From Clostridiales bacterium (GTDB taxonomy: Bacteria > Bacillota > Clostridia > Christensenellales > UBA1242): a stretch of 64,000 nt of DNA. The stretch spans positions 258,148 to 322,147 of the forward strand of contig DOEE01000003.1 in assembly GCA_003524095.1 (NCBI GenBank), in the 5' to 3' direction. A program made the position numbers and the translations under genes. Every line of letters begins with the position of its first letter. The first letter of the stretch is position 1. Below the pieces are notes generated by a model, which searched no databases, was not told the origin of the DNA, and saw only the letters and a list, made by a program, of their open reading frames with translations. This document shows positions 7,162-51,876 of the stretch, piece after piece.

Positions 7162-7166
7162 CAATT

Positions 7167-10272: not shown

Positions 10273-10301
10273 TTGACAATTTTATACAAAATAAATAAAC
10301 T
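10273..10301 (+). promoter_or_regulatory. sigmaA-type promoter candidate of giant gene 1
   Basis: TTGACA (10273-10278), a 17-nt spacer, then TAAACT (10296-10301). A TA-alternating tract at 10312-10334 lies between it and the RBS GGAGAATGG. Confidence 0.4.
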
Positions 10302-10380
10302 ATATTAGAACTTATATATATTTATATATATATTTTGAAAATTTGCTCACAATAATTTAAAGCAGTTTGGAGAATGGAAG

Positions 10381-10446
10381 ATGAAAAAGAGACTTGTTTT
10401 GTTTGGAATATTATTATGTTCAATATTTGGATTGTTTGTCGGTTGT
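10381..10446 (+). other. lipoprotein-type signal peptide of giant protein 1 (lipobox FVGC, Cys22)
   Basis: KKR n-region, a 15-residue hydrophobic core, then L-F-V-G-C. Confidence 0.6.
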
Positions 10447-13400
10447 ACAAATGACCCATACAAGGATTTACAACTTATTAATCTAAATAACGAAAGTGAT
10501 GTTCAACTATTTGTTGAACAAACTTATGTTAACAACAAAATGGAATACACATATCCTACATATGATTTGGAAGTTGAAATCAAAAACGCACCAAAGGATA
10601 TGTCCAAATATGTTTTGGTTAGTGGCGGTAGAGAACTTGTAAATTATTCTATCAACTACATAGGACTCAATAAATCCAGAATTTCAATAACACCAATTTC
10701 TTATGATAAAACTGGTAAATTTACGCTTGTGGTTAAGACCGAAGAAGGAAACAAATCTTTGAATATTAACTTTAGAGTTGATTTAAAGATTACAAGTTTT
10801 AATTACAAGGAAGAAAATCTAGGCGTTATGGTCAAGGGCGAACAATTAGATTTGACAGACCTAGACAAATATATTACTTTTAGTCCTGCAGAGACTTCCC
10901 AAAGAGACATTGAATTTGAAGTTGTTTATCCAATTAGTGGTGCTATTAACGGAAGAAACAATGTTTCATATAAGGAAGAAGATTCTTATGGAAAATTTGC
11001 CGAAATCAAAAATGGAATTTTGTATACATATTCAAAGGATAGTGACGGAAAGGCTATTAACTATCCAAAGTTAAAAACATCAGCAACAATTGAAGGCGAA
11101 ACCGGACAAGATGTTTTTGTTCAATGTATTCCTTTGAAGGCTTCTTACAAAGGTCAAAAACCCGAAGGCTCTACACTAGAAGATAAGTACATTGATATTG
11201 TTGTAATTGAGAATTGCGAAAACGTTTCACTTAGAATGGAATGTCAAAAAGACGGCGATGAAAGTTATGTGGGACAAAAGGGTTCGTTTGAACTTAGCAA
11301 AAACGAAAGCGGAGAATATGATGTTAGTCTAATATGTCCACATCCCGAAGCCGGCATTTGGTACGACGATTATTATACAAATAGAACTTTGAGTTTTGAT
11401 TTTGTTACTGGTGGAGATGATAGCACATATTATAATCCAAATGATTATATGGTTTTGTTAAACTCCGATAAATCCGGTTCTAATATAATTCAAAATGAGT
11501 ATGTAACTCTTTCTTCTTTTGGAAATATTGACAATACTTTTAGTGTGAGTGCGACAGGTGCAGGGGTTTATAAACACAAATTTAAAATTGACAACAAAAA
11601 TTATCCGGGTATTATTAATACCGAAGTTGTTGTTAATTTCCATGTTATAAATCTTCCTTATCAAGTCAAGATAAATAATGCTGTTGATATCAAACAAAAT
11701 GACAAAAGCGATTTGAATGTATTTACTGTGTTCAAAAATTATGGTGGCTCAAGGGGAACTAAATTTGAAGTCAAATTCAATAATTCTTCTGATTATAAGT
11801 ATTTTGTGTATGCAAAAGATGATGAAGTAATAGATAATTTAACCATGTACAAAGTCGATGGCTCAACTCAAATCTTTGGAAAATATGAGTTTGATGATAG
11901 TACTGGAACCGCCATAATAAAATCTAGTTCAAAAAATAATTTTGATTACTCAACCTTTAGAAATGGCGAATCTTTTTATTTGAGACATTCATATGCAATT
12001 CTTCCCGAAGAACAAAAACAACTTTTCATAGGAATTATGTATAATGTTGCTTCGGATAGTTATTCTGATGATGTAAAACAAAGATATTTTGTAAACAACT
12101 TTATTGAATTTCCAATTAATTTGGATTTTGAGGTGGGTGTTGAAAATATTACTTTTACTGAGAACAAATATTTGTTAGATGTTACAAATCCAAACTATAA
12201 TAATGATATTGAAGATGATGGTGGTGTTCTATTATTTGAACTTAGTCAGGGTCAATCATTGGATAGCGTTCTTGATATAAACGACTTAAGTTATGATAGA
12301 GAGTTAATTAAGGTTTATCCTTACTTTAATGACAACGAAAACAAAACATATATCTATATGAAAGCCAATAGTACTTACAAAACAGGCACGACCACTTTGT
12401 TTGTAAGAACAAAAAATGGAGTTCAAAACTCTGTTAATATTACAACATTTATTCCGACTATTTATGCCGAAAACGAAACGATAACTGACGAAGCAGAAAA
12501 AATGCCATTGTCTGTTAGTTTTGACTCCGATGATGTGCTTTATTACTTTACTGGAAAATCAATCCGCTTTGATGAAGTTCTCAATAGAGATGTTGTTGAT
12601 GATCCACATGCCAAATACAATTTGTACAAAAATGGTATGCAAATTGGGTGGAATTACACATCACTAAACAAATTGTTTATGATTAATGGGACATCTCTTG
12701 ATCTTAAGTTTTATGATTATTTGGTAGTGGAAAATAACGGAGTAATGAGTGTTACTCCAATTGATATTACTAATAATGTTGATGTCAAATTTAATTTTGA
12801 CGGATTTGCAAGTTTCTCTAACGGACGCTTGAGTGTATCTAAAGTTACCGAAGACAAGTCCAATCCTCTAACTATGACAATCAGTTATAGTGGTGGATAT
12901 GTTAAAGATGTTGATGGAAAACAAACTTATGTGTCCTATCCAGTAACTTTAAAAGTAGATGTGTATATTTATCTACCTTTGCAGGGTGTAAAAGTTACAT
13001 CTCCAAAAAATGTAGATATTTATATTGATGATTCACTTGGCATAATGGACAAGACCAAAAAATTGTCGACTCATACTATTGAGTCTGACTATGTTCCAAA
13101 TGAAATTAAACTTGGTGCTGATTGGAATAATGATGCAACATATTTTGATTCAAAAAACCCACCAGTTAACTTGTATTACGATATTCAAGATGTTTTGAAT
13201 TCGCCTGTAATTATAGATGGCAAAGAACTCGTTTTGTACTCCAAAGAAGGTCTTCCTATGGTTATCCATGATACAAATGGAGATAGGGGGCTGGTTTATG
13301 GCGATTTATTTGAAATAATTTCAACAAATAACAAATACAACTGTATGCTTAAAGCAGTTATTAGCGAAAAATTCAAAAATTGGATTGTTAGTCCAACTGG

Positions 13401-16400
13401 CGGAAATTACAACAACGACGAATACTATTGGTTCTTGAAAAATAGAGTATTTAATAATAATATTTCGATGTCGGTTAACGTTTATATTTCGCAATTTATG
13501 AAGTTGCAAAATATCAATAATATTAGATTTAACGTTAAATATACAAGCAAAGTAAGTTCATTAGATTTGGATATTGCAGATGATGGTGTTTACTTTGAAA
13601 AACGCGAAAGTCAAGAAACAAAATCTATTACAATTGGCTATTCAATTGGCAATCCTTTGGCTATTAACAAAGATATCATGTTGCTAAATAGTATCAATGG
13701 TGTCTTTGAAGCAAGAGTTAACGCAGGTGCATCTAGTGTAAATGGCACTATTACTATCACTCCTAAAAATTCAGGAATTGAATACTTAACAGTCGTTCCA
13801 ATGGATAATATCAAATCATATGACGAAACAACTGGAACTTATGTATATTATGACCAAAGTTTAGTTCAAAAGTTCCGTGTCAAAGTTGCTGACGGAAGCA
13901 TAATAATGCCTTTTGAAATTAGAACAGTTGACGACTTTGTTGTTATGCAAGACGATTTGCGTGGCGGAAAGTATTTTAACTATGTGTTGGCAAGAAATAT
14001 TAATTTGTCTAAAATAGATTTGTCCAAAGATAATACTATAGTCAATATTAATGGCAAAGGTTTTAGTCTTGACGGTAAATATAGTTATTCACGAAACGGA
14101 ATTGAATATGAAAATGTTTATTCTCTTACTCATTTAAATATCAAGAAAAGTATAGAAAATCCAAGTAGTGACACAAATATTGGTCTATTTGGAAGCATTA
14201 ATAATTCTATCATTCTTAGAAACTTAAATATCATTAATTCAAATATTGAAATTACTATCAAGTCTTTGAACGGACATGCTTTGAATGTAGGTATTTTATC
14301 CGGGAAAGTAGGCGGATTAAATCTATATAATTCGTTTGTGGAAGGTCAAATAACTATCAAAAACTTGGATACAACACAAAATTCAAGCAATGTAAATATC
14401 GGTGGTGTAGTAGGTTTTGTTGAGAGTTATTCAAATGTTGTTGGACTTCCAGCTAGTTATATAGCGGGTTATTCAAATAGTCCTTACAATTCAAACGTTA
14501 GAATTGACTATACTCAATCGAATTCAAACTATACAAATCATAACTTCTCGGTTGGTGGTTTTGTAGGAAATGCTCAGGGCAAATTTGACTTGACAAGTTT
14601 AAATATTGTTTCAAGCATTTATGGACTTAATTATAAGAGTAGTGTAGGTTCGGTTGCGGGAACTTTGCTTGATGGAAAATTAGACAATGTAGTTGTATAT
14701 CCTAGCATTATTATAAATGATATTTTGAGTGACAAAGATTCTGAACTTAACATTTCAACTATGATAGGTAGCGGAAATGGTTTGGTTGTAAATTCAAAAG
14801 TTTACTTTACAAAAGATAATATTATTTCTTGGCAAAATGCATTGAAAGTTAAAGTTATCACCCAAAATCCAGTTAACTTTGGTGCTGTAATTGGGAAAAC
14901 CTTAGACGGCGAATCTAAAGTAAGTTACACCTATGTAAGGAGTTTCTATAACGAAAATACTCCTAATTTCCAAGCGGATATTTATATAAATTCAACAAAA
15001 TCTAGTAAAATTGGCGGACTTGTTGGAAGTGTCGGCGGACAAAAAATCTTGCTTGAAAATTCATACTTTAATGCAAATATTTTGACTAACGGTACCAAAG
15101 AAACTGAGACAAATACAAATCATTTGATTGGACTACTTTTGGCAGATACAAATGTGGCTAGTGGTTCTAGTGTTTCAAATAGTTATGCTATTGGTGAATT
15201 GAAAGTCATTTGTGAAGATACAAATATTTACAAACTATCCAACATAAAAGATAACTTCGGTTTAATCGTTACAAGTTATCCAAATAGTGTAAGCAAAATT
15301 TTGGATACAATTGATATTGATGTCAATGCTACAAATTCTAAGCAGTCAAACGAAATTTCCAACTTGACTATTCAAAATGTGTATGGAATAATTAATTCTA
15401 ATACTTACTACTTTGGAAACAATAGTAAGATAACCGCAATTTATGACGAGTCAAAGCCATTTATTTCGGCTACAAGCGGAAACGGAATTGTTTCGGGTCC
15501 TTATGAAAGTGTATTCGAAATCTTCAATACTTTGGGTTATAATATTATCAAAGATAGCGATTCCGAAGATGCAAACAATCCAAATCTATGTTGGATTTTG
15601 AATAAAAATGTAAACAAATCAAACAATATTGGCTTCCCAGTTTTGTTATCGGAAGAAACTCCAAAAGTTGCAATGTACGACTTGGTTCCTACTAAGATTT
15701 ATTTGGATAATATCAATGTGGTTTCTGGACTTTATAATGTTAGTACATCTGACAAAACTCAACTTATAATGATTCTCAACAAGTTGGATAAAAATTCCAA
15801 ATCGAAAGATTATTTTGATATTGAAGTTGATAGTGTTAGTTCGGCAATAAGCATTAAGTTTAATGGCGAAACAATACTTACTAAATTTTTTAGAATAAAT
15901 AGTGACTTGGAGTTTAGCGAAAATTCCAACGAACAAATTATATCAATTCAAGGCAACAAAGTTTATCCAGTTAACGAAGGTCTTGCGGTGCTTACTATAA
16001 ACTCCGTTCTTGACAAAACAGTCAAACTTGAAATTACTATCAAAGTGGTTTGTGGTGTGACAGAATTGCAATTTAAAAATGTTGTAACTGGTGAACAATT
16101 TGAAGATAAAAATGACTCGCCAAAACCTATAGTTTATATAGATGAAGTAAGTTATTTTGAAATTTTGAATAAAAATGTCTTTGACAAAAACTCTTCGAAA
16201 GAAACAGAATATTTGTCTTCAAAAGAATATGGTTACAAAATAACAGTATTAGAAAGCGAATTGCCAATTGGTAGTTTGACTATTGGTGGAAAAATCCTCA
16301 AAAATGTAGGCGATGAAATCATCGTAAGTTCAAGTAGTCTTGTTGTCAAAGGTGTAAGCATCGGAACTATTAAGTTAAAAATTACTCCAATTATATTCAT

Positions 16401-25785: not shown

Positions 25786-25824
25786 ACTTAAGTACTATGC
25801 AAAGCATATAGCAAAGTTCAAAAA

Positions 25825-25849
25825 AGAGACTAAACATAGTCTCTTTTTT
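25825..25849 (+). terminator. rho-independent terminator of giant gene 1
   Basis: Stem AGAGACT/AGTCTCT (25825-25831 with 25838-25844), followed by TTTTT. It lies 40 nt after the stop codon. Confidence 0.75.
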
Positions 25850-25969
25850 GTTGTTGCATAGTAGTTAAAATTCTGTTAAAATTTAAAAAACCGAGATGTT
25901 TTTTTCGTCTTATATTTAGACATTTTTCCAAAAAAAATTTCTAAATATTATATATTTAGACTAATTCGT

Positions 25970-25998
25970 TTGACTAGTTTTGACTTATTCTATATAAT
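25970..25998 (+). promoter_or_regulatory. near-consensus sigmaA promoter of giant gene 2
   Basis: TTGACT (25970-25975), a 17-nt spacer, then TATAAT (25993-25998), 81 nt upstream of the ATG. Confidence 0.65.
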
Positions 25999-26079
25999 TA
26001 GTTAGATATATTAGATATATTATTATATATATAATAATATTTTCAATTTTTCAAAATATAAACTATAGGGAATTGATTT

Positions 26080-26151
26080 ATGAAAACGTGGAAAAAAGTT
26101 ATTACATTAATAGTTTTAATCTTATCTAGTGCTTTGACTTGTTTTGCTTGT
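26080..26151 (+). other. lipoprotein-type signal peptide of giant protein 2 (Cys21 or Cys24)
   Basis: KTWKK n-region, a hydrophobic core, then ALTCFAC. The lipobox is less canonical than in gene 1. Confidence 0.5.
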
Positions 26152-44100: not shown

Positions 44101-47100
44101 AATCTTTATAACGAAGCAAATTTAGTCAAAAGTTATGTTGGTTTGTTTGGCTATACAAAAAATGCTGAGTTCAATGGAAACATAAACTTTGTAAAAGATG
44201 AAAATACTCCTTTGGAAGGTGCGCATATTCGTTCACTCGAAAGTTATGCAGGTGCATTTATTGGCTATGCAAAAAACACTATGTTTGACGAAAACTTTGC
44301 AGTTTCTAGCAACCTTAATGTTCAAGGAACCTTGGGATATATTGGTGGCATTATTGGTTGTTATGAAATTGAAGATGAAATTGCATTAATGACAAACGAT
44401 ATTGAGCCTACAAAATATTATTTAGGTTCAATGACAAACAAAGGTAGTACCAATTTGATTGTCGAAGCAAATAACGATGGCGGTGTTGCTGGAGTTATTG
44501 GTTCTATTAAGGTTAATGTAAATAATCAATCGTTGGACGATGACACAATCAAAACACAAATTATCGCCAAAGAACTCAAGAACTATGGGCTTGTTTCTAA
44601 TGCAACTGGAAATAGTGCAGGTGTTGTTGCTGAAATTCTTGGCATAAACACTCAGTTTGTTGCAGATAATTTGTTGAGTGCTAGCAATATTACAAACTCT
44701 GCAAGTAGACTAGGTGGTATCATTGGATATAGCCAAGGTTATCTTGTTATCAAAAATGCAGTTTTGAGTAATGACGTCGATGGCATCGTAAACGAAAATA
44801 AAATAATTTTGACTAACAAAAATTATAAGTCAAATATCGGTGCTATAGTAGGCGAAGGAAACAATGTAACAATACACAATATCGAACTCGACCCACATGG
44901 TATATTAATAGTAAGCAATAACTTAATAAACTATGTTCAAAACGAGTATGCTAGCGGTGCGGTTGGTGGACTAGTTGGTCTTGTAAATACACTAACTTTC
45001 CAAAAAGAAACCGATGCCGAAAATACTCCAATTCAGATTAGCAATATTGAGTTCCAATTCGAAAATAGCATTAACTTTGTTGGTGGTGTAGTTGGTAAAG
45101 TTCAAAAAGTTCTTAACTTCGATTACGGAGATAGAGAATTTCCAAATATGCTCAAAGTATCTAATATCAAAGGTATAAGTGGTATTGGTTATTTGGGTGG
45201 TATTGCCGGATATGTTTACGAACTCAACAATTATGTCGAAGAAGACGTAAAAGATGCTATGGGGGTTTCACAAAATCGTCCAAATGGTTCATATTTTATT
45301 GAAGTAAACAATATTGAAATCAATGAAACTACTAATACTGGTGTAGATAGTGAATATGCAAGATTCCTAAAGGAAAATGAAACAATAATTGATGAATACT
45401 TTGGACATATTGGCGGTGTTTATGGATATATCGCTAAGAACAATTCAGAAAATCAACTTGTTTTGGAAAGTTACAAACTAAGTGAAATCAAAATTAATTC
45501 CAAAACAAATTATGCAGGCGGACTAATAAGTATTACTTCTAATGCAAAAATTAAAAATATTACTTTGGATAGTCTAAATATTTGTGGAGACTTTTCAAGC
45601 GGTAACATTAAATCTCAGTTCATTGGCGGACTTGCAGGTCAAGTAGGACATTCAATGGAAGCAAGTGGTGTTAATGTTAAAAATATTATCATTTCAGAAA
45701 ATCCAAACTATTCATTAGTTACAGGTAGTGATTATGTAGGCGGACTATTCGGTTCGGCTTATGGAACTAGTATAACTAATGTCAAAGCATTACATTTGAA
45801 TGTTGGTTCTTATGAGTCAAAAGATTTACATTCTAATTCATACATCGGCGGTCTTGTTGGATTTGCAAATGGTGTTCAAATTGAAGAAGCCATGATAGGA
45901 ACAACTTCAGCACGAGATATAATTAATGGCAAAAAGGCAAATATTACAGGTGCTTTGTATGTCGGCGGAATTATAGGTGGCGGTTCTAATAGTTCAGTTA
46001 AAAACTGTTTGGTTGGAATAGACGAGTTTGTCACTTATGAAGAAGTGAAAAATGATAATCTCAAAACTCTTAGGGGAAAAGGTAATGGCGGTGTAGTAGG
46101 TGCATTGGTAGTTGCCGAAGGCGGAAGTCTAAACACTATAGAGAATGTCGACGTTGTAATTGGCTTGGTTGAATCAGAAGCTAATTTCGGTGGTGTTGCT
46201 GGATACATGCAAGGCACAATTTGCGAAGCGTCAACTCTAATTGCAACATCAAAAACCATTGGTGGCGAAGAAAAACTAAGCAAAGGAAACATCGTAGGTA
46301 TAGTTTATTCTTTGAATGGCGACGGACTAAGTTCTAACTGGTTTAGCGAAAACTATAAGTTGTACGAGAGTTTAAGTGGTGCAACAGTTACTTTGGCTTA
46401 TGCCAAGAACTTAGAGAATGTTCCATCATCATATAACGAACCTACAGTCGTTTATTCAACAAAAGACGAAAGCGAAGTAGTTAAGATTACTAGTGGTGGA
46501 TGGGAAGATTACAACAAAGCAAAACAAATATTTGTTGAAGCCGGGCTTTGGAGTGTAAATGTAATAGATGGCAAAGCTGACTTATTCCAAATTGCATTTA
46601 GTTTTGATATGTATCAAAGAAGCATTAAGTCAATGAGAGAAAGAACTGCCAATCCAGATAGTGTAGAAACTTATATCATGGCAGAAGACGATAGAGCAAT
46701 TAACAAAAACAAAGATTGCTGGGTTACTGAACTGGTAGCTACACAAGATATATCAGGTGCAGATAAATTTTCTGACCAAGCAAGAGACAAAGAATACTTG
46801 TATATGTACACAGCAGTTAACAAACGTTATGACCCATCGCTTACTCCAATTAATGTAGACATTCGAATTGATGGCGATATATACAATGTTCAAACAAATA
46901 ATAATGGAATGTATCCATCAACTCAAAGAGCCGAAAGTGGCTACGGAATTGGAAACGACGAATATGTTTCAGTTTACAAAAAATATCTAGCGCCACTTGG
47001 AACAAAATACTTCCCAATCAATGACTTGAAAATCCAAGGCAAGGAAGGTGGTGCAAAGACACTATATCTTGGCACTGATGTGTTTATCGCTGGTTCTTCG

Positions 47101-50100
47101 GCTGAAAACAATTACAATTTATATGGACTTATTGGTTATGTTGAAGGCAAAGTAGATATTTATGCCATCAAGATTATGACTTTAAGACAAAATGCCGGAA
47201 GTGTTGATATTGATGTTACAGACGATGAATTTTCAGATGACGACCTTAAGGGTTATATTGAAATAACTGACACAGAAGTAACTGGTTTGCTTCCTACATC
47301 GGGTCTAGATGATAACTATTCAACTATCAAACTAGATAATGTAATGCACAAAAAGAATGAGAAATTTGTCGAAGAATACAAACACGACTCATATTTTGGA
47401 ACACTTATGGCAATGACAACACCAGTGTCATACTCACCAAACACTAAGGTTAAAGTAGACAAGAAAAATGCGGTTAGTCATAGTTTGGTTACTATAATCA
47501 ATTACGCAAGCCTAGGTTATGTAGATGATTCTGTTCCTTTGAGAGTTGCAGGTGGTATAGTCGGACTAAGTAAACCAGCTTATACAGTAGAAAAATCTGG
47601 TAGTATTCGTGAAAATTCGATTTCAGTCGAAGATGAAGACGGTACATTCAAAACTGTTTATATGGGCAATATTCCATATGAATTTATGTACAAAGCACTT
47701 TGGAACAAAGGTTTTATTCTCTATGATAATGCAAAAAATGCAAACGGCGAAGAACAAGACTTTAAGAATGCTCCAACTTATGCTGGTGGAATTTTGGGCT
47801 ATATTGATGGTTATACTCTTACAAATACAGACAAAAATAACGACAATACAAGCACAGAATACAAAAAGTACAATTTCTCCGAAGGCAATACTTATACTAT
47901 TAAGGTAGTTGATTCGGTTGGACACTATGGTCTAAGAAATGCAAATAGTGTTCTTGCAAAGGAAGTTGCTGGGGGAATATTTGGCTATGTAGGTCAAAAT
48001 GTCAAAATTAATTCTAGTAGCACTAATCAATTAAAGCAAAAACTTATCTTGAATACTGGAAATGTTGAAGCACAAATTCAGAATGGTGACTTTGTATCAA
48101 AACAAACATATTCATATGCTGGTGGTGTAATTGGATATTTGACAATTGGCTCAAACGGAAATACTAGCGAAGAAAATACCAAAGTTATGATGTTAAATGG
48201 CGAAGAATACCAAGAAACAACCGACAACAACTGGGCAACATATACTCTTGACAATTTATACTCAGGACACTTTGCTACTAAAGACTATGTCGAAAAAGGT
48301 TCGTCAGTTACTGTCAAAGCGGATTATGTAGGCGGAATTGTTGGTTTTGCAAAGGCAATAGATGTAAACTCTGCTTCAAGTAATAAATATTCTGCTAGGG
48401 ATAACGATTACTTAAATACATATACTCCAACTCAACCTAGCAAACATAAAACCCTAAGAACTGTGATTAAATTAATCATGACCAATTGTTTCAACGCAAG
48501 CGATGTTGCTCACGAAGAAATTGATGGAAAAATTACTACACAAGTTTCGGTAGCATCTGGTATGCTTGGTTCGTATGCGGGTTTGTATGGACTTGAATTT
48601 GATTCTTGTATAAATGTTGGAGATATTTATAGCAATAGTGCAAGTGTTGGCGGAATCATAAGCCACCTTTCAAATGTAGATAACCAAAAGATTACTACTC
48701 AAAATGGCAAAAAAGGTCTTGTAACATTCCCAACTTATTATAGACAACAACTTCTAATCGAAGGGGACTCCAATGCAGTCAAGTATAACAAAGACAATGC
48801 TAGTTCAATTGAAACTACTGGGTTTGGTTACAGAAATAGACTTGGTCAAGTTTCGTTTGTTAAAACTCTAAGTGCTTCTAAGCAAATTGGCGGTGTAGGA
48901 GCTCCTGGCGAAGATTATTCAATCACTGTTAATGGAAAACATTATGCTATGCAATCTAGTAGATATGTTGGTGGCTTGTATGGATATGCACAAGACGTTG
49001 AAATACTAATAGATAGTTGTATGCAACAAGGTAGTTTGCAAACGGTTAAATATGAAGACGACAAATTTACTTTTGCGGGTGGTTATGGTGCAGTTACTGA
49101 GTCCACTCAAAAAGGTGATTATGCTCCAAAACTTACAACTTCTTCCAAATCTGGATATAGGATTGATACATATGATTTAACAGATGAAAGATATGACCAA
49201 AATGCTATAAAGAAAGATGAACAGAAAGAAGACGAAGATGGTGTAATCATTAAGACAAAATCAGATATATATGCAGACTATGCAGGCGGTTTGTTTGGAT
49301 ATATCAAATCTGCACATTCTCTATATGGACATATTGCCGAAGATGGTTATTTTACAAATCATGGTAATACTGCTTACAATGAAAAGTTGGAAGACTTGAA
49401 GACTGATAAAAATGACCCTTATAGACGCTTTGAAAGATATGGAAAAGTCCTTGTGACGCCATATGTCAATGGTTATTTGTATAGTGGTTCTGTTAACGTC
49501 AAAGGTGTAATTGCAACAAGTGGAATTATTGCCAAACTTGTTAGTGAATCTGACGAAGTGGGTGAACTTAAGAATAGCTTGCTTCCAATCAAATCAACAA
49601 CATTAATTCTAACAAAAATCAAAAACAGAGCATATGTTGGTGCAGGCGAATATCAATCTGGCGAACACGGATTTGTGCCAAACAATTCGGGCGCTAGTGG
49701 AATCATTAGCGAAGTTAAACTGGTTGCTAGTTTGATGTTTGATAATTGTGGCAATGAAGGCATCGTAGATGGTAGAAAAGTTAAGTCAGATAACAAAGAT
49801 GGCATTACACAAACCGGTTCGCATGCAGGCGGGCTAATTGCACATGTTTCTAAGTATAGCAAAGATACCACAGACGATAAGTATAGAAATGTTATTTCTA
49901 ACCAGAACTATCAAGACCAAGAAAAAGATGGCACAATTTATGCAAAATACTTCAATAACTTTAGATTTGTAGAAATTCTAAAATGTACTAATTCTATTAA
50001 TTCTATGGTAATTTCAGGTTGTGAAGACCCAACTAAAAATGTATCCGTTGGCGGATTTATTGGCTACATCGAAGACCAAAAAGACGATGGAGACAAAACT

Positions 50101-51777
50101 GGAGATGAAGACTACGGACAACCATATGATGCTACAGCAGATACCGAACTTTATATACTTGAAAGCGGTTCAGCTGGAGACATTAAGTTAAACATTGCAC
50201 TAAAAACCGATGTAAACAATGATAATGATACAAATAATTATCTAAATGGTGCTGGTGGATTTGCTGGTTATGCTAATGTTGAAAGACTTACAATTCAAGA
50301 TATTAGGAATAATCATCCAAATATTAATAGTGGAGTAAACGCAGGTGGTTATATTGGATATTTAGTTAATAGTTTGACAGAAATCGAAAATAGTTCTAAC
50401 GGAGCTGGAGTATATAGTACTGGTAACTCAAATACTGGTGCTGGTGGATATATTGGACAAGTTAGCGAAAAAGGTGGCTGGCAAGGTGCTATATCAAATG
50501 AGACAAATATATTCTTTGTTTATGCTACAAAGTCAGTTAATGTTGCTGGAACCGTATGGGGCTATAATGCTGGCGGACTAGTTGGTAAGTACGAAATTGG
50601 TAATACAAAACTTGTAATTGGTGATAAACTTGACGGCAATGCTGAATACAAAGTTATTAGTATAAATCCAGCGGTGGTCAATGGCACAGTTGCTGGCGGT
50701 GTAATCGGTCTAATTGACGGATATTACAATGGGACAATGGAAGAGTCATCATTTATTTGTAATGTCAAAGTATTATGTGGTATTGTTGGAACTACTGCGG
50801 GCGGAATTATAGGCAAGGTCGCAGGAAACAATCAATACTTGAATTTAACAATAGGCGACGTAAATGAATTACCAGAAATCCAAACATCTGTAGAAGGTGT
50901 AATTGGTGACGAACGCACCGAAACTGCTGGTGGTGTAATTGGTTATCTAAAAAATATTGGGGGCTACAAGTATGGAAACATTAAGATTGGAAATGATTTG
51001 GGTTCGACAACCATATCTGCATCCAAAAATCTTGGTGGTGTTATAGGATTTGTCGAAGACGGGGAACATACTCCATCTTTGGCAGATAATGTAGTTCTAA
51101 ATTATGTAGGATTTATTGTGAACAATTACAAGCCATTTAATATTTGGGCAACGGATGAAAATGGTGAACTTTTAACCGAAAAAGTTTATAATTATAGTAG
51201 TTACTATGTTAAAATTGGTGAAAATCAATATGAACCTTATTCTGCACTTACTAGTATGAATATTGCCGAAAAACTAGGCGCATATAGTGGAGCGACTTTG
51301 GATGCTATTAACTTTGGACTAAATGTAGGTATGTTTGACAAACATGACAAAATGGTATTTAAAGGCACATATAACAGCAGAACCTTATTGAGTACTGAAG
51401 ATAAGATTCTTCAAGATATAAATGTGTCAATAGTTGTAGACAAAGGCAACGTTACAAATGTGATAGATCTTCCATCTGGCATTAGTATTAGTCAAACAAC
51501 TCCAACAAGTGGAAGAGATTATCTCGAGCCATTTGAACATGCTCCTAAGATTGATCCAGAAAACAAACCACAATCTTTGGGTAAAGATGCAGTAGAAGAG
51601 ATTTATAATGCAGACTCTGTCAACATAGCAAATGATATGGCTAGCTTGACAGACAAAGCAAAAAACATTCAATACTATGTAGTGGAAGTTACAAAAATTG
51701 AATTTAATAATGCTGATGGAACATGGAAACTTATAGAAGATAGTGATTTAATATTTAAGGCATATTATTTTGATTAA
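26080..51777 (+). CDS. giant surface lipoprotein-type protein (8565 aa) with Ig-like arrays and many GLUG-type repeat arrays
   Basis: The ORF is open for 25.7 kb. It starts with the signal MKTWKKVITLIVLILSSALTCFAC. Its N-terminal Ig-like region is paralogous to giant gene 1. It contains dozens of motifs such as VGGLIGY, VGGLIGS, IGGLVGVNSG, IAGGLVGENHG, VGGLVGLYQ, VGGLVGLVN and AGGLVGKYE. Confidence 0.9.
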   Translation: MKTWKKVITLIVLILSSALTCFACGKNSKYDNMKIEFVSCKDYADNDIQNNTVVFSSDASKNHFTLMLKVTGVDSKVDRRIEFSVDNPTVIMPNGGKYYESLGVTEAYFDIVGDGETIIRAKTIEGNKTFDYAIKVSVPIQSFEVKNNLIPIIRNSSIDLSDTDKYISFFPSNTTQREISYKAIEINEIDRGEVDKINAKLSINPRVIDTTDLKDITSFILEITSVYDSSLTQQTIVNILDKMDTSEFIFEEIIPSDEDPETHYNQLTVRTNELTNERTYSLMLGLNNDTEHAKFSSSIIELKGLNSSSGETYELNSIVNNFKKFESLDGAISAEDYRFSKYSVRIKGLKEDGFVEGLGNELMITKLPNNQFLFARSSSPAVDKVYTITFVVDYNTFEGMFETIEIPVQVTMKMFPKDIFLFASESDMKSGRDNHNPNVKSLGDNQIIAYKKGRMPVWVDVWSDSNSLERQQVKITCDNENIVIEDNNGRRIDTITGGEIFYIRQQENSPEITGEVNLTFTSTVYSEISKTVKISCVKDDTQVIFDNTTIYLNPANYSDQTSSVNIESIDLIAEGYLRFTGLPTKEGTEDQDYSTVNVHVENTTFFDFEKDINNNTLCFRNIKNKLGSVNVTVTLPNGESATRVFKVAYNFEDPSFLSIQFEDFENYDTDSLSSTLKERVDDYGFKMSDYSYKFVGVKSDEVASKTRKTKLLIGKTYSYYFLLGNAGMTQTYYDLSGILKTVSITSSNSSCVSIEGNLIKVKDYSDTPVTLNFVYRPMEGNNLQENICISIKVYFEKPITSIYTEQNNYDIYDFSTVNQNVTIGNTSETYVSKYAIKTIQLHFNPTNAISPSNVDWRVGGAVGANGYYSMSADTKDANGKIIRTFIIDGTDGKGTVSLEFMDENCLSAKLTVTNIPGNTLRFNIYIFATQHYLGENGIEIASSISTIASINVSKATRVGGISAKLFNNRISFDIRNMSYDQDSKMFTQNNTAKFEYTLNPVNVDGRVSGTGILIKDVSYQLDSSDISLDEVALQKGIVKLTVNRISGTYENNPKYTLLLTAKDGGTPTKIIISIADGKNIPFEIGSVQDLRDIADLTKYSKALESNYVLTKNIDLRGENWRPIGTLDNPFKGTLSGRYYIDEEQTNYRDYSIVGLNIKVDNSGTQCETKLENTNSYISMYGLFGCISEKAIIKNLRVYSYSINITTYLTIDNTSNSAYLNEYVGVLVAYNKGKIIDCEIDDGNLHTLSGAQIAKNSNSTLGIFYSQKCSVNSFPLYSSVGGVTGRNSGTIQGTKFKGFVSFDSSNGNKYVRSGGLAGVNDGEIIGKSENFVVSNGLEEFDVVSVINAHKDSSLLSAKNSIGGAVGYNTNKVSNLSVRTFVFGDTTSQEIKIDCGVGGLIGYNRGNVIGNTVVPVVIGNVNVGGLIGSSTNDSSSANYEFKVLDEMNISSNKVQILDFKDIYSYMNTAVKGGFNVGGLIGFYNNSQDNTLNSNIDRSQDSEKYARYTVIKYTNALSYNSVTSYFGRTTNNFDSNYSYDISNNPNGLYFGDIVVTDTNSDTTTYVGGFIGSANNALISSGYSNLSIVFSTREARYSFGNTNNDFIIGGTFVGGFVGSIRGVSSVFNIQVFGNIYNKNASLSVNSDKNYAGSFFGDVSRLNDYLFKDGEKTFTLNILEIWTSNVTFTNNNDKKISMVIPNSIDETATKIKNTYNDLLDVKSLLSNQYLYGLTMVDITNNLTLNFANLISSYSSVTITENHSGTMQTKELSRIYGQDRLIYNTGSFGVAFMYNGDVYLSTKTYIEVPSVVGYNSYALGSTINLYLSINVKDNNNLNSTSYTKELGTKIITLDDLKVALDLSNYEITDTEEISKLGTSVSYYSDLYERKYQYSDETKTITTKVYSNLVSKFMPTSAFSKSNSSWEGTITDESLLVPQAFGNFDIIRNADKNPVALSGLYVSTNKNETGIDERPLGDGTNYLDKLNNSLRYYNPKIHSGYPVAIAKNPTFTQNNDNYINLIIIFKPEIIEINVGNVLSDVNYVNTWISAVETANKLNPENKTIFYYELKFADKNSNLFEYNKMPWEYKNGQKVIDFDKNGIYTSIDQMYTDYVMEEINNKNIHSLSDVLKISIQPPFLQNGMIKFTSSNPNVAVIRIIDDKAYIETKSTGVVEFTISSLYNSDIKTSFKVNIINAVNTFEMYENQANSKEINLNDKITVIKNEDLATTIYSKLNGSFDIQNEYLKTYASSDLKLTLNNAVNSESTYGIRYIYLNSGADILFDNDNGAINTIKINGKKFAPASFADIYGKTGYYYYVDDDSMMTKITGVETTTESIRLLAVPYVNHGHERTYLFDFANMSYNNIQNLVVSSGNSLCKLLTIDVVEGVYDISSTPEVTFKPVNSQIIDIEVKTDNENSQLFVNISANSKELELYSDLEKSTSLTKPNLENIFKLNLDAYELKQDFDVIYFDKMYIKNLGALQVRDNSGKLTSIKYSVKIGVANKYLFDSGLNNEYNIKFTVVNYEKQVLTSETKVTIERQNIDNTMIKHFAGVDEFTENVTEYNLNDYYESNSLVTGYPGLLQIDVFPKYANIDYIEIISSESGGRYVSLEQLVAKYDRTNTYFDGYYHTYTQDRQIILSGRGIRMGKYSNTYNDGSDNYYFDGTFYARTVVPNLPLGSVDFTLTINCYLDGKIIATNQIVINVTKRPTVDLNIKGENFGVIALGRELEVTADTNTQIVWSTDESEVNYEQVMTAKEPVYNAETKAYDIKVKSIHDLGGFDEALKLVGKNIVLKATVSIIIKGRVYSTSDSIPIKLALFTIDEVAVKYVENDNFQGVFNQPYDLMGYISKATYDLDYDKDADVSKKISTIISNYSNLLSRADKNSFKILSNGYWSVLTDEPNQKSDFWIERRGDYYVIKNNMRYTSSSLKLDINVQYTTMSNDAEFGIIINPRSYTNNDFIINRNKQFGFNFIRLSNEEYPEPIYTQAELSNMEEGGYYILLSDITLNNWTPINTAIASLDGNGYVISINKDSFYDTTIQAPAEGETSSEKLSLGIFSEISENTIIKNLTIEMLPSNGVISDVITSSSSDIDIPVQYYSEVKFGVLAGENKGIVTNVNITNNANALRNERNSLLISRGLAEDGVVSNLPTTNTVEYEGADKVVKTINRRLTTINLNYGNLTSVSTTNRIGGLVGVNSGYVSNSSVENINIKGLDCVAGFIAENTGIISSSYYMGGNINAQVSAVSTENLGASAFVFTNSGRIKYSYSAGARIVETESGLSKLISLSGVEDLTKYIGHEYDNPASNNNKHQPIRMRSTGVTSESGNTAGFVYSNTGSIDDCYSNILVYGRYSAGFVFQNSGSINNVYTLSSVLSSDANNNPFISLIDNNSSANNSGTITNSYYVKAIESDFGNTGGSAPVDSYINESKQVANAISITKLNQYNTFESFAFNSNYDSLANINYRSYGKDYSISAIDEIARSVWFYPTITITQDNTFRSYFRKSDYTHGAPQLVSANLKTFSLKYYVSDNSTKIINNVYTQLIDKYPTINVNFSKNSIKVSTMEVTSDALLARVKANSQNPNDVTINTIVNTLNSYTGSSLYGSLTANSLDNETLQYIKTSIYVENEFYKTLNEVDKLNKFKNDVINYVITSNAFKTICYIDVDVYNLADTTIPATAVTYDYYAILENTYGDSIEYGNSILNPYIIKSARDYNVYIMQTDDNGVSSTEKNFKSNKHLRLVRDITFSSQELTVKTFNVDYSGVFDGNGMTISDIRINADTTKSSNAINKQLTSNYEEEDTYDDDNNELTPNRKATSVGMFAKLSRGAVVKNLDITIAELYGTGVNFVGTIAGQVIDSKIYNISVSGSAVVFGHNIVGGIAGRVEGNSSVVNAKSNVAVTSTYYKIYNTFDKNNIEISKDSTYNVYVPKIFDEKKDLKTTSKFYNVSYAGGIIGIVDLAKDTLNSSIDTSYIGKIRFNSYSAESFIRGEIVGGLYGYVGENSVVSASKLYATDSGRLDASRIAGGLVGENHGIIERSFVSYTANEQNTIDQKINELSKVLNYTQTFGDTLFANDKSIFVGNAHFIGGVVGLNVCGRINNTYNKINVSQINSLYAGGIIGATIGGELFGVYTTADVYAFKGIGGVVGLNAGYVGEDATSNNLYISNYDAFKNVSLATLNMKGVVAINMWKLEHLNVRRSYINPVAQENASVGTLIGEVYTSESSSVGDLVKIDEIYSRLVNENIYTLSTYSFSSITKYNEASNKNNIKLELLGEIGNAKDVDYIQDVNSSGTLIDDGKTLKVVHVDDDSNKYVVRDIAIVDRIIHSGNIMQLMYDKTNGYSLVTTSHYSRLRKYSSLRTLKEIVDRAFDASQSTLMLSKLTLSEGISISESENRNFPKVLIVDSEDKVVNSIQALQTSIQKIYPVDVWNATVWSGVGYNEISMEKTDENIFPVHENRTSDLTIDVRCYEDLLQANKNPNGKFVLRKDISVPANASPICSLGSPFTGSLYSYGTEHFKITIDKLESMGTVGLFSAVKGATFSNFDIEVSNEIKVTNSGNNSSAAGVLFGYGYSRGYNPNVISNVTITFTTHGKIKTSNSSNDINDFSAAYVGAVGGFADSLYIDNLIVNNPDISISGSTNNVTNPNMYVGGLFGYASILESYTSKNIVLNNPIINLDVTFEQGSYDTLAVGSAFGKLVNTDSSVLNSQVTLGLNSVKITNPKLDIRFSAKDRTPDVNNSNSKEFANFNSIGIGGVFGLLEGIKRSESNIFTINDIKVESTTPDEPNSTKFVVTNNGVYSSSKYANKGNLNVGGLIGQLGGNNNGFVNVNNVENALTVITYNHSNTSDYLSNQDVNSFVNIGAIIGGVVSSSGKMQELLSNTRLEYTMQELDNVVVNIGGIIGKLSSGTASNLIATNNLETVKVDGKSTQVTTGEDTILNIGGVIGLMTGGTLTRSGFNANATMYLSQNSSSNISMGGLVGRVQMTKSNEISNSFASGKLNLYTSKNTQNNIIIGGFIGLINSYGNIQNSFSSNSITCYDYDSTDYSIKNSSTYNALGAFVGKYTMIDNQVSELKIVSSYTISNIIANVTEEANSYVGGIIGRAESTSGYDISTSIRLPKAYYLAEFMLDTNSIGMAMSVDELLYGDKKNPKDNSSLFDEGYWTVSENKYPVLNWMSADLIDPKLVPEIIEDLDNSTILQNKAYIITDSEFDKNNLQLNNNDVYFKNKINSNHKIFESIDNYSRVYGMNFGTLEINSAVINTNLGKVSTTTISSLKSDSGYIANNAGIDIHPVVTMSSGKLYNKFSGLTIYPKIKINASISNIITNNTGYIKYAVITATNQNDFDTLNIKNSYVTLSSNNYKYYGSDGDYNSQILTSNQSKELGNFTDGYDFYNTWLILSEEGEGDGRHEGRVFLRWELKESVGKQWYFEDIDLNSTTQTEYKDYVWSNFVNANKDNIQSDDFNVTVNTITIGSAKGLAKLSQLINNDGRKDENNAVVNNYTDKKIVLSNDIDLTGRLFTPIGGAMLLENYGNNYFGGSFNGNNHNIKGLFVITEKDAGLFGTSKATSYSNVNIKNSTLISNNGNIGTLVSTQISNAEISNINIDVKANSEDQQTSLKILFGATAIDRNAGGIVGQVKSAILMINNVTIDNNINSNIYNGNSVGGLIGNASNSKGINIDLSKNYLNLKGSYYVGGLIGSVYSSSVTLTRSFNEGSVQNTSADSDLYSAGGLIGLSDSQSYLSISECYASAYIKGLNVGGLVGLYQNNISPLNISDSYYSRGDVGKVVGGETNYRNEDYSNTNMNNAEQVLVRLDETKGKYSSIVNVSDENTRVNLSQVYSSVNTVSNSLKLTNSTNTKNEFYKVFEFNYGIENELIDYSNTKQITQISHKDLSEPNNDMYDGWMFTWSRISQKNNNYPILLFTGRTWGGEEPEKIDDYYAIKKVENLVWIAENVNVKGKNFAGENFKVVPTADNSSDGINVVFDLQHKLWTPIGFSETNSFQGSFDFGNLTIKNLTTNGYYKNNLYNEANLVKSYVGLFGYTKNAEFNGNINFVKDENTPLEGAHIRSLESYAGAFIGYAKNTMFDENFAVSSNLNVQGTLGYIGGIIGCYEIEDEIALMTNDIEPTKYYLGSMTNKGSTNLIVEANNDGGVAGVIGSIKVNVNNQSLDDDTIKTQIIAKELKNYGLVSNATGNSAGVVAEILGINTQFVADNLLSASNITNSASRLGGIIGYSQGYLVIKNAVLSNDVDGIVNENKIILTNKNYKSNIGAIVGEGNNVTIHNIELDPHGILIVSNNLINYVQNEYASGAVGGLVGLVNTLTFQKETDAENTPIQISNIEFQFENSINFVGGVVGKVQKVLNFDYGDREFPNMLKVSNIKGISGIGYLGGIAGYVYELNNYVEEDVKDAMGVSQNRPNGSYFIEVNNIEINETTNTGVDSEYARFLKENETIIDEYFGHIGGVYGYIAKNNSENQLVLESYKLSEIKINSKTNYAGGLISITSNAKIKNITLDSLNICGDFSSGNIKSQFIGGLAGQVGHSMEASGVNVKNIIISENPNYSLVTGSDYVGGLFGSAYGTSITNVKALHLNVGSYESKDLHSNSYIGGLVGFANGVQIEEAMIGTTSARDIINGKKANITGALYVGGIIGGGSNSSVKNCLVGIDEFVTYEEVKNDNLKTLRGKGNGGVVGALVVAEGGSLNTIENVDVVIGLVESEANFGGVAGYMQGTICEASTLIATSKTIGGEEKLSKGNIVGIVYSLNGDGLSSNWFSENYKLYESLSGATVTLAYAKNLENVPSSYNEPTVVYSTKDESEVVKITSGGWEDYNKAKQIFVEAGLWSVNVIDGKADLFQIAFSFDMYQRSIKSMRERTANPDSVETYIMAEDDRAINKNKDCWVTELVATQDISGADKFSDQARDKEYLYMYTAVNKRYDPSLTPINVDIRIDGDIYNVQTNNNGMYPSTQRAESGYGIGNDEYVSVYKKYLAPLGTKYFPINDLKIQGKEGGAKTLYLGTDVFIAGSSAENNYNLYGLIGYVEGKVDIYAIKIMTLRQNAGSVDIDVTDDEFSDDDLKGYIEITDTEVTGLLPTSGLDDNYSTIKLDNVMHKKNEKFVEEYKHDSYFGTLMAMTTPVSYSPNTKVKVDKKNAVSHSLVTIINYASLGYVDDSVPLRVAGGIVGLSKPAYTVEKSGSIRENSISVEDEDGTFKTVYMGNIPYEFMYKALWNKGFILYDNAKNANGEEQDFKNAPTYAGGILGYIDGYTLTNTDKNNDNTSTEYKKYNFSEGNTYTIKVVDSVGHYGLRNANSVLAKEVAGGIFGYVGQNVKINSSSTNQLKQKLILNTGNVEAQIQNGDFVSKQTYSYAGGVIGYLTIGSNGNTSEENTKVMMLNGEEYQETTDNNWATYTLDNLYSGHFATKDYVEKGSSVTVKADYVGGIVGFAKAIDVNSASSNKYSARDNDYLNTYTPTQPSKHKTLRTVIKLIMTNCFNASDVAHEEIDGKITTQVSVASGMLGSYAGLYGLEFDSCINVGDIYSNSASVGGIISHLSNVDNQKITTQNGKKGLVTFPTYYRQQLLIEGDSNAVKYNKDNASSIETTGFGYRNRLGQVSFVKTLSASKQIGGVGAPGEDYSITVNGKHYAMQSSRYVGGLYGYAQDVEILIDSCMQQGSLQTVKYEDDKFTFAGGYGAVTESTQKGDYAPKLTTSSKSGYRIDTYDLTDERYDQNAIKKDEQKEDEDGVIIKTKSDIYADYAGGLFGYIKSAHSLYGHIAEDGYFTNHGNTAYNEKLEDLKTDKNDPYRRFERYGKVLVTPYVNGYLYSGSVNVKGVIATSGIIAKLVSESDEVGELKNSLLPIKSTTLILTKIKNRAYVGAGEYQSGEHGFVPNNSGASGIISEVKLVASLMFDNCGNEGIVDGRKVKSDNKDGITQTGSHAGGLIAHVSKYSKDTTDDKYRNVISNQNYQDQEKDGTIYAKYFNNFRFVEILKCTNSINSMVISGCEDPTKNVSVGGFIGYIEDQKDDGDKTGDEDYGQPYDATADTELYILESGSAGDIKLNIALKTDVNNDNDTNNYLNGAGGFAGYANVERLTIQDIRNNHPNINSGVNAGGYIGYLVNSLTEIENSSNGAGVYSTGNSNTGAGGYIGQVSEKGGWQGAISNETNIFFVYATKSVNVAGTVWGYNAGGLVGKYEIGNTKLVIGDKLDGNAEYKVISINPAVVNGTVAGGVIGLIDGYYNGTMEESSFICNVKVLCGIVGTTAGGIIGKVAGNNQYLNLTIGDVNELPEIQTSVEGVIGDERTETAGGVIGYLKNIGGYKYGNIKIGNDLGSTTISASKNLGGVIGFVEDGEHTPSLADNVVLNYVGFIVNNYKPFNIWATDENGELLTEKVYNYSSYYVKIGENQYEPYSALTSMNIAEKLGAYSGATLDAINFGLNVGMFDKHDKMVFKGTYNSRTLLSTEDKILQDINVSIVVDKGNVTNVIDLPSGISISQTTPTSGRDYLEPFEHAPKIDPENKPQSLGKDAVEEIYNADSVNIANDMASLTDKAKNIQYYVVEVTKIEFNNADGTWKLIEDSDLIFKAYYFD

Positions 51778-51800
51778 TCTAATAGCAACTAAAAAAAAGA

Positions 51801-51838
51801 CATGCAATAGGGGAAACTCTATGGCATGCCTTTTTTTT
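51801..51838 (+). terminator. rho-independent terminator of giant gene 2
   Basis: Stem CATGCAATAG/CTATGGCATG (one mismatch) with an 8-nt loop, followed by CC and TTTTTTTT. Confidence 0.7.
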
Positions 51839-51876
51839 GTCTCAAATTATAAAAATTTTGTTTCAAAACATAAAGA

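Follow-up and report, generated by a model that had tools for sequence, protein, structure and literature searches.

Fibrillar adhesins such as SasG/Aap, Ebh, PrgB and the SRRPs are located at the cell surface and combine a signal peptide with a stalk of immunoglobulin (Ig)-like domains and a binding domain; the classic members are built from tandem sequence repeats whose copy number varies, and gain or loss of them is frequent. We describe here two adjoining genes, designated A and B, which encode predicted giant lipoproteins of 5,134 and 8,565 amino acids (aa) and which lie head-to-tail in a 64,000-nucleotide stretch of DNA from a Clostridiales bacterium (contig DOEE01000003.1 of assembly GCA_003524095.1, positions 258,148 to 322,147 of the forward strand; hereafter the window). 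Like the fibrillar adhesins, A and B possess a signal peptide, a long putative Ig-like stalk (with a match to PrgB) and beta-solenoid modules of the kind seen in the binding regions of SRRPs, and they are predicted to lie at the cell surface. Unlike them, they have no strong repeats, no LPXTG or C-terminal transmembrane anchor and no recognised adhesive domain, and the length and locus of the A orthologs are conserved rather than variable.

By description, the proteins Giant1-5 of Apilactobacillus kunkeei are similar in several respects: they are consecutive extracellular proteins of 3,000-8,000 aa which take up several percent of a small Firmicutes genome, contain beta-solenoid domains and have no dedicated transport genes nearby (PMC12863079). 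Giant1-3 are rods of alpha-helical repeats which start with a beta-solenoid, end in an SH3b-like wall-binding domain and have no predicted transmembrane domain, and Giant4-5 are confined to a few species (PMC12863079). A and B, on the other hand, are all-beta in the parts that were modelled, non-repetitive, predicted to be lipid-anchored at the N-terminus, and present throughout a clade. The giant proteins surveyed by West-Roberts et al. (bioRxiv 10.1101/2023.11.21.568195) resemble A and B in being derived from metagenomes, in containing beta-helix segments and in having been assigned a proposed role at the surface or in cell-cell contact. Those from Clostridia were found in mammalian gut metagenomes and carry repeated RCC1, Listeria-Bacteroides, YG or dockerin domains, while those of the Omnitrophota exceed 30,000 aa and have many transmembrane regions and SecA-like domains. 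A and B differ from both in that each has a single signal peptide and neither shows a clear transmembrane segment or a repeat recognisable by Pfam, and the term "lipoprotein" is absent from the text of that survey. GhpA of Aureispira (PDB 9fly, 9flw) is, as is predicted for A, a very large secreted protein with long Ig-like arrays and was matched by the stalk of A in Foldseek, but the similarity is of a generic Ig-like kind (template-modelling score, TM, 0.11-0.26), and the phylum, secretion route and assembly are different. What sets A and B apart from the closest systems is the lipoprotein-type anchor, the lack of sequence repeats, the pairing of A with B and the clade-wide synteny.

The two genes are located as follows.

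10381..25785, plus strand: gene A, giant putative lipoprotein of 5,134 aa (open reading frame, orthologs, dN/dS)
26080..51777, plus strand: gene B, giant putative lipoprotein of 8,565 aa (open reading frame, positional orthologs, dN/dS)

An earlier note, made from the sequence alone, had reported two giant tandem open reading frames (ORFs) filling 64% of the window and had considered both to be under coding selection. The coordinates were reproduced exactly. Both ORFs open with ATG and contain neither an N nor an internal stop, and together they amount to 41.1 kb. At the G+C content of the region (32.5%) the probability of a stop is 0.083 per codon and the mean open run is 12 codons; the log10 probability of a stop-free run is -192 for the 5,134 codons of A and -321 for the 8,565 codons of B, and the longest open runs in the other five frames reach only 57-156 codons. 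Frames of this length measured against this rate of chance stops exclude a chance origin. Five contigs of independent assembly, drawn from NCBI, ENA and Logan, encode the identical 5,134-aa product of A; one of them is a 1.018-Mb scaffold and another comes from a human gut metagenome, and on the two of the five that were examined the adjoining gene is called at 8,565 aa. The 90%-identity cluster of A has 45 members, the full-length listed ones measuring 5,127-5,143 aa. An assembly artefact is ruled out by the same lengths in independent assemblies together with the existence of full-length orthologs.

The ratio of nonsynonymous to synonymous substitution rates (dN/dS, Nei-Gojobori), calculated between the window and a 95%-identical metagenome-assembled genome (MAG) from the Hadza (L008), has a value of 0.137 in A and, over the initial 1,768 codons, of 0.11 in B, in agreement with the coding selection proposed before. 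In 500-codon segments of A the ratio varies from 0.04 to 0.33: it stays at 0.04-0.15 as far as codon 4,000 and reaches 0.23-0.33 in the final 1,100 codons or so, and it is lowest (0.044) in the first 500 codons, which are proximal to the anchor. A and B are genuine genes under purifying selection over their entire length, and both products are strongly acidic. One claim of the earlier note did not survive, namely that B would be among the largest bacterial proteins, since predicted proteins are reported to exceed 30,000 aa in Firmicutes and, in Omnitrophota, to reach 85,804 aa (bioRxiv 10.1101/2023.11.21.568195). According to PMC11573180, UniProtKB contains over 41,000 proteins longer than 5,000 aa, most of them eukaryotic. 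At 8,565 aa the product of B is large, yet it is not among the largest bacterial proteins.

A search with residues 1-5000 of A retrieved 28 full-length orthologs of 4,983-5,391 aa, with identities from 99% down to 33% and coverage of 99-100% except in one case (78%); all 28 are unnamed and free of Pfam domains. Relatives at a greater distance measure 5,666-7,625 aa. The 22 A orthologs that were aligned have a length of 5,152 +/- 113 aa and are evenly conserved from end to end, with the highest values at residues 2700-3700. In the databases searched, a Pfam domain is present in only two of 37 relatives of A, and the sole source name in ten clusters of such relatives is "hypothetical protein", attached to a 43-aa fragment. 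A and B are themselves paralogs, distant but collinear, which share approximately 28% identity over A 2689-3717 and B 2968-4192 (blastp, E 1e-28) and short patches at the N-terminus. The positional orthologs of B, following A-type genes, encode products of 8,776, 8,370, 7,204 and 6,800 aa (L001, L002, L005 and L038, respectively).

A profile search with the conserved core of A (see below) matched 2,991 cluster representatives at E<=1e-3, 702 at E<=1e-10 and 439 at E<=1e-30; the family comprises at least these 439 clusters at 50% identity. The best 150 matches are nearly all 4,000-7,993 aa long with the core at about residues 2,200-3,900. When 168 proteins of at least 4,000 aa were typed, 91 were clearly A-like, 43 were clearly B-like and the remainder were neither clearly. 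No protein above 7,993 aa was returned by the searches, and B and its orthologs of 8,370-8,776 aa were not retrieved when B itself was used to search; proteins beyond about 8,000 aa may be missing from the libraries, in which case B-type genes are under-counted.

In every lineage examined, relatives at 24-29% identity included, the gene order is (SpoIIT-like)/M23 (SpoIIQ-like)/acyl carrier protein (ACP)/SpoIIID/(TilS-like)/A-type/B-type. L039, the one relative in which the downstream flank was recovered, has rpoB-rpoC after the B-type gene, as does the window. A scan of one genome per species yielded 29 loci, all from MAGs which their depositors labelled uncultured Clostridia, Christensenellales or Christensenella sp.; their hosts are human (Hadza, Nepal, Brazil), goat, roe deer, rabbit and mouse, the source in each case being the gut. 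Between the window and L039 RpoB is 91% identical as against approximately 31% for B, and between the window and L002 the M23 peptidase, ACP and SpoIIID are 81%, 88% and 78% identical as against 46-48% for A. By these identities the giant genes diverge much faster than the genes beside them.

Some of the relatives possess domains which Pfam does recognise. P0036 (L037), which is 24% identical to A (3.8e-44) and displays the same synteny, contains GLUG (50 bits) and Big_2; P0062 contains GLUG, the N-terminal domain of M26 peptidases and fn3; and P0063 contains GLUG and Listeria-Bacteroides repeats. P0061, the positional ortholog of B in L039 (10001-20188, the gene being interrupted by a 100-N scaffold gap), is approximately 31% identical to B and ends in two peptidoglycan-hydrolase domains, CHAP (3012-3132) and NlpC/P60 (3298-3377), which the B of the window does not have. 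Among some 200 relatives P0061 is the only one with such an end. In L037, the most distant syntenic lineage examined, a 119-aa ORF (24779-25138) is located between the two giant genes.

No paper describing this family was found in full-text searches. Judged from the sequences, A and B belong to a large, well-supported and previously unannotated family of giant predicted lipoproteins, which occupies one chromosomal spot in uncultured gut Clostridia.

The putative anchors are encoded at the start of each gene.

10381..10446, plus strand: signal peptide and lipobox of A (MKKRLVLFGILLCSIFGLFVG followed by C22), a match to the PS00013-type pattern with C22 invariant
26080..26151, plus strand: signal peptide and lipobox of B (MKTWKKVITLIVLILSSALTCFA followed by C24), with the -1 Ala and the +1 Cys kept in B orthologs

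Protein A begins with MKKR followed by 17 hydrophobic residues, and its LFVG-C22 conforms to the PS00013/G+LPP pattern, with a Cys22 that does not vary among the 22 aligned orthologs. Protein B begins with MKTWKK and a hydrophobic run, and its TCFA-C24 misses the strict pattern solely through the Cys at position -3. Its orthologs read FFAC, CFAC, LSAC or LFAC at this place, followed by (D)(P/K)Y..M, and a DPY..M motif after the Cys is common to A and B. Of 167 relatives of at least 4,000 aa 134 pass the strict pattern. The 20 of the 33 failures that were inspected have an extra Cys in the hydrophobic region, except for one protein which is truncated at the N-terminus; a +1 Cys is visible at the equivalent position in most of the representative N-termini inspected. 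The lipoprotein-type signals which had been read at both N-termini in the earlier note are borne out by this conservation of the Cys across A and B orthologs.

Its remark that no other anchor could be recognised likewise stands. LPXTG was not found in A or B, and no tile of either protein matched SLH, CWB2 or an equivalent S-layer anchoring family in Pfam. The signal peptide is the sole clear hydrophobic segment on the Kyte-Doolittle scale in both proteins (2.4-2.5, with a cut-off of 1.6), there being one borderline stretch inside B at residues 8226-8244 (1.62). A and B are thus predicted to be anchored to lipid at the N-terminus through the lipobox Cys. Giant surface proteins of Gram-positive bacteria, for example Ebh of Staphylococcus aureus, are probably exported by Sec with an ordinary signal peptide, so that the export of A and B would require no special explanation.

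The architecture predicted for the remainder of the two proteins is as follows.

10447..14046, plus strand: A residues 23-1222, predicted stalk of about ten Ig-like beta-sandwich domains (AlphaFold2 and Foldseek)
14068..15480, plus strand: A residues ~1230-1700, putative first beta-helix module (from motifs: N[IV]GG[LI][VA]G-type repeats and density of GGxxG)
18445..21480, plus strand: A residues 2689-3700, conserved core, predicted to form two tandem right-handed parallel beta-helices (AlphaFold2 and Foldseek)
22558..24870, plus strand: A residues ~4060-4830, further putative beta-helix-like modules (from motifs: GG..G and N.G.I.N repeats)
34981..38592, plus strand: B residues 2968-4171, core homologous to the predicted double beta-helix of A (blastp, module profiles, motifs)
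42571..47571, plus strand: B residues 5498-7164, putative beta-helix-like region rich in GG[LI][VI]G (similarity to P0060 and P0061, motif density)

The AlphaFold2 model of the stalk (A 23-1222) has a predicted local distance difference test score (pLDDT) of 82.5 and a predicted TM score (pTM) of 0.40, which together point to about ten confident domains in a flexible mutual arrangement. Foldseek gave 248 PDB matches at E<=1e-3, to Ig-like arrays; they include titin I65-I70, Nup210, DSCAM, contactins, the base of GhpA, the S-layer proteins Sap and SbsC, and the Ig-like domains of PrgB. The core was modelled from A 2680-3720 with an alignment of 19 orthologous sequences, giving a pLDDT of 82.8 and a pTM of 0.85, and each of its two beta-helices opens with ..LDGNG[YM]. 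Its top Foldseek matches are 3n6z, a GLUG-type "putative IgA1 protease" (BACOVA_03286; 4e-4, TM 0.15/0.38), and GH55; further matches are to tailspikes, pectate lyases, Ag43 and IgA1 proteases. The matches to catalytic beta-helix enzymes are weak (8e-4 to 0.1, TM<=0.3), and in a viral structure library (BFVD) the matches were to beta-helix proteins of a generic kind, a phage "putative IgA1 protease" among them.

Within A conservation is highest in the core, which is also the part shared with B. In B the corresponding motifs are LDGNGY at residue 3012 and FDGNGM at residue 3752, and hidden Markov models (HMMs) of the core modules match B at 5.5e-30 and 8.5e-45. With these HMMs the other putative beta-helix modules of A and B were not detected, being too diverged. 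Outside the modelled parts A, and to a much greater extent B, are rich in motifs of the GG[LI][VA]G type (19 and 66, respectively). The region B 5498-7164 is 31-34% identical to P0060 and P0061 and gives weak matches to the GLUG-containing P0062 and P0063. The C-terminus of A looks beta-helix-like to its end and aligns across the orthologs, with C5105 invariant and G5110 nearly so. Self-BLAST at E<=1e-5 revealed no internal repeats in A or B.

Family databases were of little help with either protein. Five tiles of A and B had zero Pfam matches at E<=0.01, and at E<=10 the A tiles and the C-terminus of B gave only GLUG (E 1.2) and noise. NCBIfam named only the neighbouring genes and nothing in A or B, and a profile search of PDB sequences with the core of A found nothing. 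The best score for GLUG (PF07581) is 10.2 bits at A 1388-1406, which does not reach the gathering threshold of 20.5 bits, and GLUG has no match in B. The GLUG-motif surface proteins (3n6z; the beta-helix domain of the streptococcal and Gemella IgA1 proteases 6xja and 7uvk) may share with A and B a right-handed parallel beta-helix with GG[LI][VA]G coils. Besides falling below the threshold, A and B differ from them in lacking an M26 peptidase domain, in being 4-7 times longer, in combining several diverged beta-helix modules with an Ig-like stalk, and in being putative lipoproteins rather than LPXTG proteins. Membership of A and B in the GLUG family would be only transitive, through P0036. The suggestion made earlier that GLUG, Big_2 or beta-helix families might be found here holds in substance: beta-helices and Ig-like domains are predicted by AlphaFold2, and P0036 carries both GLUG and Big_2, while in the window itself GLUG is sub-threshold.

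The signals for transcription which flank the two genes are these.

10273..10301, plus strand: sigma-A-type promoter of A, TTGACA-17-TAAACT (consensus scan, 10/12 matches)
25819..25850, plus strand: intrinsic terminator after A, with A-tract, GAGACU stem and U-tract (fold of -16.6 kcal/mol, z -4.6 versus shuffles)
25970..25998, plus strand: sigma-A-type promoter of B, TTGACT-17-TATAAT (consensus scan, 11/12 matches)
51790..51839, plus strand: intrinsic terminator after B (fold of -21.5 kcal/mol, z -5.7; 0/200 shuffles as stable)

The sequence TTGAC[AT]-17/18-TA[TA]A[AC]T occurs upstream of A in all six loci compared (the window, L001, L002, L005, L037 and L038), and TTGAC[TA]-17/18-TATAAT occurs within the A-B spacer in nine of nine loci examined. 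A lone hit of this sort in AT-rich DNA means little, but boxes which are kept in AT-rich spacers of widely differing length constitute a phylogenetic footprint. The two terminators were missed by a pattern scan and recovered by RNA folding, the stem of the one after A running into the T-run. The A-B spacer holds this terminator and the promoter of B and no ORF; behind B lie the terminator of that gene and, before rpoB, a promoter-like site. Between SpoIIID and A no site resembling a terminator was detected, and Rfam revealed no riboswitch or leader near A or B. That each gene would have its own promoter and terminator, as had been suggested from the window alone, is strengthened by the conservation of the boxes in orthologous loci and by the stable hairpin after each gene, and A and B are predicted to be transcribed separately. 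Palindromes composed of A and T only are located downstream of the -10 boxes, at about 10312-10331 for A (TATATATATTTATATATATA) and about 26019-26040 for B (TATTATTATATATATAATAATA), and similar ones are present at the same place in L001, L002 and L006, and for A also in L005 and L038. They could be an operator site, a 5'-UTR hairpin or mere AT-rich spacer.

The genes on either side agree with the neighbours named in the earlier note, spoIIID upstream and rpoB downstream. Upstream of A the window contains, among others, yabP-yabQ-divIC on the minus strand and genes for an LPG_synthase_TM-like membrane protein, a polysaccharide-deacetylase-like protein, a SpoIIT/DUF1779-like protein, a SpoIIQ-like M23 peptidase, ACP and SpoIIID; downstream of B are rpoB, rpoC, rpsL and rpsG. 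No secretion, chaperone or glycosylation gene was recognised within the window, as had been stated before. The yabP-yabQ-divIC-like trio occupies 4765-5706 (minus strand), and in the relatives L005 and L038 mfd is found further upstream. The order mfd ... yabP-yabQ-divIC and the rpoB region are also origin-proximal in Bacillus subtilis, which places the giant genes in an ancestral core region of the Firmicutes and not in a mobile island.

On balance we favour, with moderate confidence, the view that A and B, paralogs passed on together by vertical descent in an uncultured gut lineage of Clostridia (labelled Christensenellales), are surface lipoproteins, exported by Sec and expressed in vegetative cells, which form adhesive fibres or coat the cell. 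How they would be exported and lipidated, what shape the fibres would have and what they would bind we infer as follows. Each gene would be transcribed alone from its strong, conserved sigma-A-type promoter during vegetative growth, which we propose from the boxes in nine of nine (B) and six of six (A) spacers. The unfolded chains would leave the cell through Sec, and the Cys after the signal peptide would be lipidated by the Lgt/Lsp pathway, tethering the N-terminus to the outside of the cytoplasmic membrane. The Ig-like domains, about ten in number, would then act as a flexible stalk and carry the remainder through and past the wall; at some 4 nm per domain the first 1,200 residues would span about 40 nm. 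The distal three quarters would be made up of several right-handed beta-helix (GLUG-type) modules, with a rigid, conserved double core in mid-protein and a C-terminal quarter which appears to evolve faster. The fibres, probably more than 100 nm long, would constitute the outermost cell surface and might bind host or dietary glycans or other cells. The fast divergence relative to the neighbouring genes, the rise of dN/dS in the distal end and the acidity of the proteins suggest the style of evolution of surface proteins, and the consecutive beta-solenoid surface proteins of A. kunkeei, which have been interpreted as adhesins (PMC12863079), provide a precedent.

Several observations weigh against this view. 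The AlphaFold2 models cover 2,241 of the 13,699 residues of A and B, searches of Pfam, NCBIfam and PDB sequences recognised no adhesive or ligand-binding domain in either protein, and the last 1,040 residues of B have family-internal relatives only. Lyases, hydrolases and depolymerases use beta-helix folds for catalysis as well, and an enzymatic role of the core is possible. Furthermore, both genes hold a fixed chromosomal position across the clade, the length of A varies by about 2% among the 22 aligned orthologs, and strong repeats are lacking, a combination which an indispensable structural component fits as well as or better than an adhesin. One might therefore suppose that A and B are a quasi-housekeeping outer layer, a lipid-anchored substitute for an S-layer in which adhesion is not the main job. 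One-to-one orthology, the constant pairing of A-type and B-type genes at the spoIIID-rpoB locus down to 24% identity, the constrained length and lengthwise even conservation of A, and the strong conserved promoters of both genes are in keeping with such a scaffold, as is the expenditure of 41 kb, approximately 4% of the 1.018-Mb scaffold, on the pair. The Ig-like stalk also resembles Sap and SbsC, but this likeness is generic Ig-like similarity, and the Pfam tiles revealed neither an S-layer anchor such as SLH or CWB2 nor a lattice-forming domain. The fast divergence and the faster-evolving distal end would fit an interaction surface. We consider this explanation a possible though rather unlikely one; it overlaps heavily with the fibre reading and may be another aspect of it.

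The matches of the core to a GH55 glucanase, pectate lyases and the depolymerases of phage tailspikes and capsules raise the alternative of a tethered machine whose catalytic beta-helices digest host or dietary glycans, or the walls of neighbours on contact. The core is the most conserved part of A and has many invariant polar residues (D, E, K, R, H, N; examples are D2736, N2738, K2773, D2778, H2854, R2996, E3005, D3276, K3317, E3558 and D3620), P0061 ends in CHAP and NlpC/P60 domains, and giant genes have been connected with cell-wall degradation by predatory bacteria (10.1101/2023.11.21.568195). We nevertheless regard such a machine as unlikely: the fold matches are weak (the best at 4e-4, TM 0.15-0.38) and headed by a GLUG beta-helix without an assigned function, searches of the A tiles and the C-terminus of B at E<=10 brought up no family of CAZymes or hydrolases, and the hydrolase-tipped end, absent from the B of the window, is confined to one of some 200 relatives. 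Size, surface location, the faster-evolving C-terminal quarter of A and, once more, the tip of P0061 might also call to mind a contact-dependent polymorphic toxin of the CDI, Rhs or MafB type, in which a variable C-terminal toxin is delivered to neighbours. The C-terminus of A, however, looks beta-helix-like and is aligned across orthologs rather than swapped, no toxin, Rhs, PT-TG or similar domain was found, and the spacers after A and B contain terminator- and promoter-like sites only, with no small ORF of the immunity type. The genes are, moreover, core and syntenic, and lie outside any variable island. With neither a variable toxin end nor an immunity gene this explanation, which we hold to be very improbable, was set aside. 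So was an association with sporulation, at the spore surface or in engulfment, which suggests itself from the neighbouring yabP-yabQ-divIC, SpoIIT-like, SpoIIQ-like M23 and spoIIID genes. SpoIIID adjoins the giant genes in every examined locus whose upstream flank was recovered, and no terminator was detected between it and A. Against this, both genes have conserved -35 and -10 boxes of the vegetative sigma-A type, the one type scanned for, and the flanking genes are ancestral neighbours in the Firmicutes, so that for proximity, the only basis for the idea, the simpler explanation is that the giant genes were inserted in a core region which is conserved. Coat and exosporium proteins are not known to be deployed through a lipobox anchor to the cytoplasmic membrane. 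A sporulation role therefore seems to us scarcely credible.

In returning to the fibres which we favour, a bolder version may be mentioned. A and B, possibly together with a divergently oriented gene of 3,617 aa located 9 kb upstream, might form a clade-defining, obligatory, lipid-anchored and non-repetitive "molecular forest" more than 100 nm deep, which replaces the S-layer and tethers cells to partners or particles, and in some lineages the tip of B might be armed with CHAP and NlpC/P60 for contact-dependent attack on neighbouring bacteria or feeding from them. We put this forward as a speculation that is probably wrong. If true, it would amount to a surface organelle of a novel kind and would mark an epibiotic or antagonistic way of life, going beyond an ordinary adhesin. 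Whatever their role, the two genes belong to an organism present in human gut metagenomes, and they demonstrate that a bacterial protein can be giant without being repetitive: over 5,000 unique and evenly constrained residues have been kept through deep divergence. Should A and B be the main surface of the clade, they would be the first candidates for attachment to mucus, fibre and other microbes, obvious targets of phages and secretory IgA, and useful markers with which to sort or enrich the cells.

The far upstream part of the window contains a few further elements. Two tRNAs were identified by ARAGORN and a third by Rfam alone (4459-4533, minus strand; 50.2 bits); the latter sits where the window differs by indels from the near-identical scaffold L003, the offset being 864, 616 and 380 across the first 5 kb. 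Three small tandem ORFs (177, 171 and 160 aa) at 2643-4226 on the plus strand had no NCBIfam or significant Pfam match, and L003 and L002 have, at the equivalent position, three and two ORFs, respectively, of matching or similar size. The divergent giant gene referred to above enters the window at positions 1..1143 (minus strand), which encode its N-terminal 381 aa or so, the gene running off the start of the window. Its N-terminus shows no detectable homology to A or B and has a signal-anchor (MESKKFNWNKLLNGLIAGIAIILASVFIGLCFIVP) rather than a lipobox. At full length it encodes 3,617 aa in L003, 3,794 aa in L001 and 3,445 aa in L002, and it occupies the same divergent position in related genomes.

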